Part shown: in pieces, positions 38,039-59,880 of the stretch
How the letters are laid out: each line of letters opens with the position of its first letter
Numbering within the stretch: position 1 is the stretch's first letter
NCBI GenBank assembly: GCA_964016885.1
Contig: OZ024745.1
Coordinates: 88,040,001 to 88,104,000 of the forward strand
DNA from: Eledone cirrhosa
Taxonomy: Eukaryota
Reading direction: 5' to 3'
DNA length: 64,000 nucleotides
The notes under the pieces: model-generated
What the model saw: only the letters and a program-made list of their open reading frames with translations
Databases searched by the model: none
What the model was told of the DNA's origin: nothing
Position numbers and translations under genes: made by a program

Positions 38039-38343
38039 TGGTAGTTACCACAATTCCGGTTTGTATTTATTTTCTTAATTTTTCCTTAAATTGAGATATG
38101 CGAACCCTATTGTCTATAGTTAGTATTCTTTTCACCTTAGCGAATCAGGTCCCTTACGATTTGAACACATATATGTCTGTGTTCGTTTCTCTTTTTTATA
38201 TTGTATTATAATATTACCTATATATATATATATATATATATATATATATATATATATATATACTTGCGTATAATGGTAGCATTGGTGCTTCCATAGGCGG
38301 TATGCCAAAATTAGCACTCAATATTCAACAGAGTAGAGTGTGG

Positions 38344-38590
38344 ATAGTATAAAAAAACGAAAAATCAGTGATGCATCTGGACTCAATTTATTGCGTGTTA
38401 CAATTGTTTCGCTGGCAGGTAGCTCGAGACATGGTCCCTGTATGGATCTGACTGATTCTACGGCTGCAGGTTCTTTCAGACACGCGTAGTTCGTTGGTAG
38501 CAAATGTTATCACTACCTTCCGGCGAAACAATTGTAAAACGCAATACATTGAGTCCAGATGGATCACTGATTTTTCGATTTTTATACTAT
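38344..38590. repeat. Foldback with ~78 bp arms; minus-strand hammerhead-like motif at 38393-38485 (family E)
   Basis: Arms are reverse-complementary; gcgtgt CTGAAAGA ... GAAA c-aatt-g TA acacgc, then AATAAA. Confidence 0.8.
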
Positions 38591-38887
38591 ATATATTTAT
38601 ATATATATATATATATATATATATATATATAGAGAGAGAGAGAGAGAGAGAGAGAGAGAGTAAAGCATGTTCAGATAATTATTTGATAATATATATACAT
38701 CATGTCAACCCTCAATCAGCATAATTAACCACACAAAAAATCAATTAGACAAGGCTATAATACCTGGTTTAATTGGTGTATGTGTAAATATTTATATATA
38801 TATATATATATATATATATATATATATATATATATATATATATATATATATATATATATATATATATATATATATATATATATATAT

Positions 38888-39300
38888 ATGGCGGCTGCCA
38901 ACTCGTTTTCGAGTACGGCCACTACTTTATATCCATGTAGGAGAACCCCTACCGATGCGCTGAACGAGTGTGATATTTTAGTCCAGCCAGCGACTTGAAA
39001 ACTCTGGTACAAACACTACACTTTAGACAATTACTGACACATAGTGCTGGGCCCATGGTACCATGTGACGACACGTGCAGAGAGATCTCCAGATATAAAG
39101 CAATGACTGTGTCGTGAAGCTTTTATAGTGAGCAAAGGCACTGCACAAAGCCAGTACCACTCTCTTAACCAAGATGATATTTACCAAAACGAAGAACAAG
39201 TCAACATCATTGGATACCATCAGGGTTGCAGGTGTTATATCAGAGTTTTCCTTCTCCTAGAATTCTTCCTAGACGAAGGCTAAGGGGTCATCTCTCCCGG
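38888..39300 (-). mobile_element. 5'-truncated copy of the non-autonomous RTE derivative, between TA runs
   Basis: Reverse complement of ~23547-23960. Confidence 0.88.
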
Positions 39301-57303: not shown

Positions 57304-58340
57304 ACCCCGGTTACGGCCTCCCACAACGCCCCCCCATACACCCATGTAGGTCCCCTACACCCCGTACCAATGTGCAATGGACAACAACAATCACCCATAG
57401 TTTGTGGTCCCTATGGTGGATGGTCCACCGGACCCTCGACGGGTTAGGAGTCATCTAAACGATGTTTTATTGAACCTGATTTTTTATATATATATCATGT
57501 GTATATATATATATTTTGTGTGTATATATGTGTATTTTATATATATGTATGTATATGTATATATTATATATATATATGTATGTGGGTATTTTATGTATAT
57601 ATTTTTTTTTTATATTTTTATATGTATATATTTTATATATATGTATGTTCTGTGTATATATATATATATATATATTATATATGTATAGTTGTGCGTACAT
57701 ACATGCATGCATATATATGTATACAAACCTGTATGGATTTGTGTGTGTAGATGTGTGAGCGTCTGTGGGGGTAGGTGTGAGTGTATGTACAAATCAACCA
57801 GCATAAACCTTTTATTTCTAAATTTTCTAAACTATCTAAGTATTGGACTCTAATCATTATATTAAGTATTACCACCTCATATTTTGTATATGTGGATCTG
57901 TGTGTGTGTCTGTGGAGGTGGGTGTGAGTGTAATGCAAGCCAACCTACATAAGTCTTTTTACTCCAACCATAAATTTCTACTCCAACCATAAATTTCAGT
58001 AGCACCACTCCACATAAATTCCTCAATTTAAGAATGACCTGTAGTATCGTCTCTATTTCATACTATTAACCTTAATTGAATATATATCTGACCAGGAATG
58101 CCTTTTGTGAAAATCAGTCATATGGAACTATTGTCATCTTGCCTGACGGTTTGAACTTTACAAAACCACCTGCCTCTTTGAGGTCAAATACCCACCCTAC
58201 TAGCATCTACAAACTAACTAATGAGAATCAAGTCTATTCCTGCTGACAACATTAAATTATTCCTAACAAGCTCATATATCCCAAGGCTCTGATACCATCA
58301 ATACTATAAACACAGAGCTCGCATATCAAAGAACTTACTA

Positions 58341-58396
58341 ACTGCCTGATGAGGTCATAACCATTCAATGGCTATCATCGAAATATATATAGCAGT
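58341..58396 (+). ncRNA. Minimal hammerhead ribozyme in the 3' pLTR (family K)
   Basis: actgc CTGATGA .. GAAA tatata TA gcagt. Confidence 0.78.
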
Positions 58397-59880
58397 AAAT
58401 AAAGGATTATGAGTTCATGCTTATGTTTCGTCACTATATATATATATATATATATATATATATATATAACGAAGGAAATGTGGTAAAGGTCCAGGTGGAC
58501 CATAGCGCACCAAAGTACTCAATACTTAGGGTAGTAGAGTGGGTAATAGGAACGAATAGAACGATGGGGTCCTACTCGTTCCTATATATATATATATATA
58601 TATATATATATATATATATATATATAAGATATATATATTGGTATAATTTAGAAGGGTCATGCTGCTAATTTACATACACGCACCTGTTGGTCTTCTCTTC
58701 AATTTCTTATAAATGCCCGGTTGGTTGGTTCCATAACCGGATGGTTGTTTATATATTGTCAAAGCTCTTTCATCACACACTCTGTGAACTCTATGAGTGA
58801 TTTTTTATGATGTGTCTCTCCTTTGTTCTATCTTACACCATCTTGTTTTTGTGTGTTAAGAAATCTTGCAAAACAATTTCAAAAACAAAGTATATACACA
58901 TATATATATATATATATATGTAAAAATCAGTAAAAAACTAGACAAGAAGATATTGACAGAAGAATTTATAGTCTATTTTTAATATGTTTCTGTACACACA
59001 CACACACACACACACACACACACATATATATATATATATATATATATATATATATATATATATATATATATATATATATATATATATATATATATATGTG
59101 TGTGTGTGGGTGTGTTGGTGTGTGTGTGTATGTGCGTACATATATATTTATATATTTATATGTATGTGTGGGTGCGTGTGCGTGTGTGTTTGAATGTGCG
59201 TGTGTGTGTGAGGGGGAGGTGGTGCGTGTATATATGCGTGCATGTGAGCACATGTCTTTCTTTATCTATATGTGTGTACATGTGTCTTTCTCTATCTATA
59301 TGTGTGTTCGCGTGTATATATATCTAGCTGTGTATTTGCTTGTGTGTGACTGATATATATGTACTACTTACTATACGTAGATATAGTTATATATGGAATA
59401 ATATTTCTTAAAGTGAATACAATCAGATTTAGAACAACCAGACTGGCAAGTCAGATATTCATAGTCTACGGTCACGTAATGCCTTCGTCAGCCAAATAGA
59501 AAAAGATTAGAAGAATTATTGATGTTGTTGCACACAAAAAAGTGATGATATATGAAAACAAAACTGCAACATATTAAATGTGTACACATTTTTTGATCAT
59601 ATCGATGAAATCAAAATCAAAAATAGTGTTTTAAATTAACTTATAGAAATGAGCTATCATAGTCATTATATAGGCAGATATTTCGTAATTAAATCTAAAA
59701 ATCTTTTTTTTTCGTGCAAATCTTTATGTGACTATACACATGTGTATGAGATTGTCATGATAGACAATTGTGGCGGCGAGCTTCTGTTTTCAAATAATCT
59801 TCCATACACACACTCTCTCCCATTCACACATAGCGCAATGAGGCTGTTTGCTTGCAAACGAATGGAATATTATTATTATG

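Follow-up and report, generated by a model that had tools for sequence, protein, structure and literature searches.

A pair of bulged hairpins next to the insertion ends of Hydra-clade Penelope-like elements in Eledone cirrhosa

A 64,000-nucleotide stretch of the Eledone cirrhosa genome (assembly GCA_964016885.1, contig OZ024745.1, positions 88,040,001 to 88,104,000), hereafter the window, raises the question of why the same short stem-loop recurs beside TA runs in modules that otherwise look unrelated. The original prediction was that the stem-loop is a conserved 3'-terminal RNA recognition signal for a Penelope reverse transcriptase (RT), shared across families. The analysis reported here showed that the motif-bearing modules are truncated, inverted ends of Penelope-like elements (PLEs) of the Hydra clade and not short interspersed elements (SINEs). 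The position of the hairpin in these elements, its pairing, its arrangement as one of two twins, the positions of the insertion ends and the two-armed geometry of the insertions are established observations. As to function, two covarying bulged hairpins occur in these elements, the motif being the one that comes first; each probably serves, as RNA, as a binding site for the RT and probably fixes an internal site at which complementary DNA (cDNA) synthesis starts, a reading to which we assign a probability of roughly 0.63.

Rereading of the sequence located the bulged-hairpin motif at positions 38314-38339, 48578-48599, 53815-53840 and 58515-58540 of the window, a weaker copy at 39439-39460, and a copy in reverse orientation relative to the others at 54570-54598, so that all six sites proposed at the outset stand. 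A strict pattern matched four times, always on the forward strand (mean 0.0 and maximum 0 in 200 block shuffles), and a looser one matched eight times (shuffle mean 0.3, maximum 2), two of the eight (23932 and 38901) being a different, unbulged palindrome. Measured to the closest TA run on their left, five of the window copies show gaps of 51, 36, 45, 46 and 59 nt, and a sixth, degenerate copy that had been overlooked lies at 43069-43095 with a TA gap of 55 nt. In the whole 3.0-Gb genome the strict motif gave 62,703 exact matches (31,361 forward and 31,342 reverse), and its reversed control gave 0. The positional enrichment near TA was borne out, since TATATATA is located 36-58 nt downstream in 27,378 of the 31,361 forward exact matches (87%); only forward matches enter this statistic, the reverse count being inflated by multiple end points. 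Two variants, ACTC-not-T (7,265 matches versus 572 in the control) and the G-C-closed GCTC...GAGCRC (5,627 versus 804), are also abundant beside TA. The near-fixed distance from TA held only in part, because the distance from the hairpin to TA is constant inside a family but ranges from about 30 to 59 nt across families.

The motif was found in at least 13 distinct tails in this genome, with many unrelated flanks, which agrees with the claim that it is common to otherwise unrelated modules. The commonest family, here called D, dominates the exact matches listed, as would be expected if the motif were a functionless leftover of one SINE or of one repeat family. We give that explanation almost no credence and rejected it on the occurrence of the hairpin in metagenome hosts and on its covariation (both described below). 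The number of distinct tails, the links to open reading frames (ORFs) in five families plus family A, the compensatory changes and the presence in other hosts all speak against it, as does the result of ARAGORN, which found 0 tRNA genes in the window.

The nature of the host element is clearest in family A. Hairpin 1 of this family (54570..54598, forward strand) directly follows the 5' pseudo-long terminal repeat (pLTR) of a Hydra-clade element (53987..54565, forward, the start being approximate), which confirms on the sense strand the related ACTC copy that had been placed just past the 5' pLTR. The 5' pLTR contains a minimal hammerhead motif predicted from its sequence (54462..54517, forward, pattern match at 54467) and shares blocks with the 3' pLTR (57857..58437, forward), which has a hammerhead motif of its own (58341-58396, pattern match at 58346) and stops in (TA)n 8 nt short of the would-be start of hairpin 1. 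Between the two lies an ORF for an RT with a GIY-YIG domain (54707..57303, forward) that carries RWR, DKT, YRDD, WYNPP, CNC, CNLC and CRH and is broken by frameshifts and stops. Pfam gave no match for the pieces of Hydra ORF; named homologs, with 39-41% identity, are from Apostichopus, Stylophora and Oculina. The papers and the preprint cited below by identifier are used for the parts available to us, and statements about their content refer to those parts. As in the Hydra clade of Craig et al. 2021 (PMC8557442), an RWK-type N-terminal motif is accompanied by DKT in place of DKG (RMRWRAY and HADKT in family A, RRLRW and HSDKT in family C), a CxCX5C linker precedes the C-terminal GIY-YIG domain (CNCPDRSTC in family D; CNC in the family A copy of the window, the rest not being intact), CCHH is absent, and CxxC and CxH surround the conserved E and N of the endonuclease (CNLC..E and CKH in family D, CNLC..E and CRH in family A). 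The hammerhead in the pLTR, the insertion into (TA)n, the inverted 5'-truncated arm and the one-sided tail are likewise shared with that clade, whose tails are given as 30-40 nt, compared with about 65-95 nt in the families studied here. These elements thus belong to a known clade, and their layout is already published (PMC8557442, PMC3846280). The predicted co-occurrence of the motif with Penelope ORFs and hammerheads, across families with unrelated flanks, was also observed: families A, C, D, G and J are linked to a Hydra ORF, and hammerhead patterns match in the window at 54467, 58346, 43158, 43345, 48703 and 39524, with the variants of families D and G recognized by eye after PMC4209133. 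Rfam returned 0 matches at the gathering threshold in the window, hammerheads included, and one chance match (E=1.5) in 54400-54760.

Where the insertions end relative to the hairpins bears on the 3'-terminal idea. Among 30 loci covering the family A region, 25 stop in a TA run 51-58 nt past the motif (20 of them at exactly 52 nt) and five, the window copy included, run on into the ORF; the segment that ends in TA past the motif is the known PLE 'tail' (54563..54652, forward, lying between two insertion-end sites). Hairpin 1 is located inside this tail, in the 5' untranslated region (5'UTR) just past the pLTR. A second hairpin sits 38-65 nt past the first, and tailed copies lack it. In family A it occupies 54659..54679 (forward), is closed by a G-C pair and lies 27 nt before the ATG, and tailed genomic copies stop 8 nt before it. 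Hairpin 2 is present in families A, C, D, G, H, I, J and K, including 25 of 26 matches of family G, and its end lies 8-29 nt before the ATG in most families and about 50-65 nt before it in C and D. The twin-pattern search was weakly enriched overall (420/465 versus 218/53 in the control) and served to find loci, not as a statistic. Family D was also searched past its tail with the 'not T' pattern, which gave 629 matches; the 20 examined were degraded TA junctions, the true continuation starting with the excluded letter.

Loci of this genome were then aligned to seven twin family references, with end windows that cover about a fifth of each reference; the reference of family I was dropped because it contained a TA run. 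Of 200 TA-joined ends, 191 fell within 25 nt on the 5' side of a hairpin, and for 178 of them the distance was 2-11 nt. Where an arm has no tail, it stops 5-9 nt short of hairpin 1, and across eight families the distance from hairpin 1 to TA equals the spacer between the hairpins minus about 7 nt (offset 6-10; r=0.987, slope 0.99, calculated on modal values picked by the analyst). An inverted arm was detectable in 59 of 129 tailed ends; 54 of these arms end before hairpin 1, two are also tailed and three end otherwise, so that most two-armed insertions (54 of 59) combine an end of one kind with an end of the other. What is conserved is thus the distance of about 6-8 nt that separates each hairpin from the end on its 5' side. 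The 38-52 nt measured on the 3' side is the family spacer, which appeared as a spacing only because hairpin 1 had been seen in tailed arms. As for the supposed 3'-terminal signal, it did not survive: hairpin 1 is internal in the 5'UTR, its twin lies further on, and insertions end at two sites, each on the 5' side of a hairpin. The dinucleotide UA occurs within 3-10 nt before 62 of 66 hairpins, compared with 31 of 66 in a downstream control window.

The hairpin was also found in other animals. By eye, it is seen in five of the six Hydra consensus sequences of File S7 of PMC8557442 (coral, sea cucumber and sea louse; two are variants), either after the hammerhead or at the 5' start. A search with a Hydra alignment retrieved 78 metagenome loci, and among the elements with a located ATG the hairpin lies upstream of it in 25 of 28, hairpin matches numbering 76 in forward and 10 in reverse orientation. 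Where 130 nt or more of upstream sequence was available (23 metagenome elements), two hairpins are present in 14, one in six and none in three, and five of nine informative breakpoints fall 0-4 nt before a hairpin.

In the structure of the motif, RCUC is followed by an upper stem-loop whose size varies, by a bulge of 2 nt on the 3' side, by GAGY and finally by AC or GC. Its covariation was analyzed on sites found by sequence anchors alone, with pairing left out of the search; they were clustered on their flanks, and the pairing was tested by script. After 14 singletons of this genome had been dropped, 70 representatives remained, 41 from metagenome contigs and 29 from this genome, in which the bulge is UU (41), UC (13) or UA (10). 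The closing pair is Watson-Crick in 67 of 70 (G-C 50, A-U 17; shuffle mean 42.8), and the next three upper pairs are Watson-Crick in 63, 47 and 41 (shuffle 31.3, 19.6 and 17.6), with all four pair types seen at the second and third upper pairs. When the bulge was set to 1 or 3 nt, the first upper pair dropped to 4 and 7 of 70. These data support the bulged hairpin that had been proposed in the orientation of the element. At the second upper pair G-U occurs 20 times and A-C twice, an excess that suggests folding on the sense strand of the element.

The excess of G-U is equally consistent with G-T pairs in sense-strand DNA, and it brings in a second explanation, namely that the hairpins act as DNA, in a sense-strand donor that is single-stranded or extruded, where the GIY-YIG endonuclease would cut 6-8 nt away, resolve the intermediate and fix both ends. 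We consider this unlikely. In its favor, PMC8557442 ascribes the tail to endonuclease-mediated resolution, and the endonuclease of D. virilis required the tail for recognition of plasmid DNA, as recounted in PMC11167929. It would, however, have to account for hairpin 2, which is never present in tailed DNA copies and would need to be copied first and then excised. The Poseidon element PAc also speaks against it, both tail boundaries having been obtained in vitro with an RNA template alone (PMC11167929).

According to the same study, reverse transcription by PAc begins internally, at two sites that mark off the tail, and both strands of an AT-rich target are extended; the RNA is required as far as +172, which is about 55 nt beyond the start at +111-118, and PAc is predicted to be a dimer (PMC11167929). 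Two internal starts, the use of both strands, the need for RNA past the start and the dimer fit the reading of the hairpins as RT-binding RNA. The biochemistry of PAc also bears on a further possibility, which is the one nearest to the original 3'-terminal idea: the hairpins would direct cleavage or termination of the RNA 6-8 nt upstream, and the RT would start at true RNA 3' ends, as in long interspersed elements (LINEs). This explanation predicts the same genomic ends, and read ends in PAc RNA-seq coincide with the start sites, but in the protein-plus-RNA reaction those starts were unmoved when the template's 3' end was lengthened (PMC11167929), and a cut before hairpin 2 would separate the 5'UTR from the ORF. 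We judge it slightly less probable than the action of the hairpins as DNA, and the genomic data fit these two explanations and the reading as RT-binding RNA alike.

A role of the hairpins limited to loading the protein (cis-preference, packaging or translational control near the ATG), with starts set by the nearest UA that pairs with the TA primer, seems to us improbable. The short distance from hairpin 2 to the ATG in most families and the frequency of UA upstream of the hairpins would suit such a role; however, UA is abundant throughout the UTRs, yet the ends cluster at one offset per hairpin. Moreover, families H and K, which have the hammerhead and both hairpins, gave no Hydra protein match in the loci examined, and the retention of the hairpins in such families argues against mere loading and fits a signal read in trans.

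Because the ends stop a few bases before either hairpin, we favor the interpretation that the pair tells the RT where copying starts, and start sites set in this way would explain the one-sided tail. In the proposed mechanism, the endonuclease of the element would nick both strands of the (TA)n target, and each freed 3' end would pair with a UA that the RNA carries a few bases 5' of a hairpin. Each hairpin would dock an RT, one per target strand and perhaps as a dimer, with the active site placed 6-8 nt upstream. The arm started before hairpin 2 would then copy hairpin 1 and the spacer, giving the tail, the arm started before hairpin 1 would stop at the end of the pLTR, and the two cDNAs, usually cut short, would be joined head to head as (TA)n-arm-arm-tail-(TA)n. 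That the pair forms a clade-wide two-site ruler, present in several animal phyla, that places two RTs on one RNA has, in our estimation, an even chance of being right. Such a ruler would mean that both strands of the cut (TA)n are primed at once, in a bidirectional, double-primed retrotransposition that explains the Penelope tail and the head-to-head inverted arms in one step, and that the 20-nt start signal is portable and is borrowed by non-coding parasites too.

Several observations weigh against a start-setting role. PAc belongs to another clade, the PAc RNA printed in Fig. S1 of PMC11167929 contains no RCUC/GAGY, and its authors call PAc priming non-homologous. On the side of the ends, 168 that are not joined to TA were excluded from the 200, part of the loci had been selected for TA 20-58 nt after hairpin 1, and the enrichment of UA before the hairpins may reflect AT-rich flanks. 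In family E (48578) none of 10 pattern matches had a second hairpin, and 8 of 13 families have no ORF link in the loci examined. In other hosts, the motif was not seen by eye in Hydra-1_Obim of File S7 of PMC8557442, three of the 28 metagenome elements lack a hairpin by the descriptor used, and four of the nine informative breakpoints lie elsewhere. With regard to the structure, the representatives are related, so that shuffle p-values overstate independence and are optimistic; the A-U closing pairs are all from this genome, misparsing or spurious inclusion affects a few representatives, and the strand counts at the third upper pair are 13 versus 11. Isolated hairpins are weak (-2 to -7 kcal/mol), z is below -2 in only one of nine folded sequences, and hairpin 1 is absent from the centroid structure of its 146-nt context.

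Small RNA structures recognized by the RT and shared with non-autonomous partners are known from the 3' stem-loop signals of LINEs and SINEs, e.g. those of the R2 3'UTR and of eel UnaL2; these recognition stem-loops have a single, terminal start on their 3' side and become part of the copy. The hairpins described here resemble them as small structures putatively recognized by the RT and common to non-autonomous partners, but each lies 3' of a putative internal start, is paired with a twin and is not copied by the RT that it would position. A LINE-type 3'-terminal stem-loop was accordingly rejected, the insertion ends being found at two sites and 5' of the hairpins. For PLEs, descriptions of the one-sided tail and of the inverted arms go back years, to our knowledge with no cis signal to account for them. 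A similar case is PAc (Frangieh et al. 2024, PMC11167929), in that two starts bound the tail and RNA 3' of the start is required, but its start lies within one 'AC-rich stem loop' inside the ORF, and that paper, the only in vitro study, located start sites and neither identified a protein-binding motif nor described a twin, as far as its available parts go. In the available main text of PMC8557442 the words 'hairpin' and 'stem-loop' do not occur, the twin hairpins of its own consensus file passing unremarked; the same words are absent from the available text of PMC3846280, which describes the tail and favors antisense self-priming, and 'hairpin' is absent from that of PMC13282606. Neither the hairpin nor its twin was found described in the open-access literature that we searched; Repbase reports, subscription papers and bioRxiv supplements could hold one. 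The motif supplies exact, mutable nucleotides and a quantitative prediction, a start about 6-8 nt 5' of each hairpin. In this genome it also shows where over 60,000 short insertions truly end, insertions that resemble miniature inverted-repeat transposable elements or unclassified SINEs, and RT-based insertion tools would gain a compact start signal from it. The RTs of PLEs are the sister group of telomerase RTs, and through this kinship a start-setting structure 3' of the template would bear on the origin of internal templating.

The signal appears, from the sequences compared, to be limited to the Hydra clade. In the supplement of PMC8557442, 23 of 27 matches to six 8-mers fall in the Naiad and Chlamys files and none of these is this hairpin by eye; all four matches in the Hydra file are this hairpin. 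The window also holds a Neptune-like element, family B (49960-51868, or 49700-51868 in a wider delimitation), with CX4CxxC before GIY-YIG and a hammerhead near 51586. In 18 of 30 loci of this family a 12-nt extension without an RCUC/GAGY hairpin is present, and the remainder end directly in TA; lacking the hairpin, the family must set its two ends in another way. A universal PLE signal was rejected because of the absence of the motif from this family and from the Naiad and Chlamys matches. Neptune-like foldback stubs lie at 43497-43846 and 48150-48400. The PAc RNA printed in Fig. S1 of PMC11167929 shows by eye two GGCCA..AGCC repeats 41 nt apart, a spacing close to the PAc tail length, each followed by an AC-rich run, and these repeats are possibly an unrelated twin signal in the Poseidon clade.

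The remaining modules of the window with the motif are stubs on the reverse strand. That of family G is two-armed (38263..38590), with hairpin 1 at 38314-38339 and, by eye, a hammerhead-like core with a long stem II; full copies of this family have hairpin 2 and, 15-16 nt later, a Hydra ORF. The stub of family J (39380..39574) has hairpin 1 at 39439-39460 and a hammerhead motif at 39524-39574, and a genomic copy of the family (L340) has hairpin 2 and the ORF. The foldback stub of family C (43014..43440) combines the degenerate hairpin 1 at 43069-43095 with hammerhead motifs at 43158 (reverse) and 43345 (forward), and loci L218 and L346 of this family have both hairpin 2 and the ORF. Family E is represented by a two-armed stub (48542..48763; hairpin 1 at 48578-48599) with a hammerhead motif at 48703 (forward) on the untailed arm, and family I by a stub (53770..53890; hairpin 1 at 53815-53840) whose family shows hairpin 2 in one genomic copy only; no ORF link was found in 11 copies of family E or in seven copies of family I. 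The minimal two-armed stub of family D (58469..58583) has hairpin 1 at 58515-58540. Long copies of family D have hairpin 2, a Hydra ORF with CxCX5C, a 1.3-kb 3'UTR and, by eye, a U3-A8 hammerhead variant. In the pLTR of three loci of this family (L089, L129 and L139) the hammerhead with the U3-A8 core has a long stable stem III by eye and lies about 30 nt before hairpin 1; with that stem it may possibly be active as a monomer. Another family D locus (L344:500-1200) contains three tandem 257-nt units, each spanning the hammerhead stem, the two hairpins and the initial codons; the final unit ends in a normal tail, and the arrangement suggests template jumps. At 14.23-14.27 Mb of G000:C1 (L214-L217) a satellite has units of about 66 nt made of hairpin 1 of family D and part of the tail.

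Family H forms tandem units of about 1.3 kb, in two head-to-head arrays, with the hammerhead and the twin hairpins (L347, G000:C1:130882000-130891999, and L237), and would on its sequence be a retrozyme-like non-autonomous PLE. Families H and K can be compared with the animal non-LTR retrozymes, non-coding hammerhead units derived from the pLTRs of PLEs (bioRxiv 10.64898/2026.07.22.740005); in the available main text of that preprint hairpin, stem-loop, tail and initiation do not occur, and no cis signal for the RT is named.

Other repeats of the window lie outside these families. At 38890-39300 and 23932 there is a different abundant repeat that opens, about 11 nt away from a TA run, with a perfect ACTCG/CGAGT hairpin lacking a bulge, and the 3' end of the repeat looks, we presume, RTE-like. 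A 5'-truncated LINE RT (40890-42963; Pfam RVT_1, E 2e-33) ends in (TA)n and is preceded by a 272-nt palindrome (40617-40888) centered on a TA run. From their translations, two decayed Helitron-like Rep/helicase elements were recognized at 2815-6115 (forward) and 29879-33754 (reverse). The translations also revealed LINE sequences at 8103-9485, 15679-20287 (reverse) and 12137-15171 (forward): decayed copies of the APE type and a second LINE that has an RT and, at its C terminus, a restriction-like motif.

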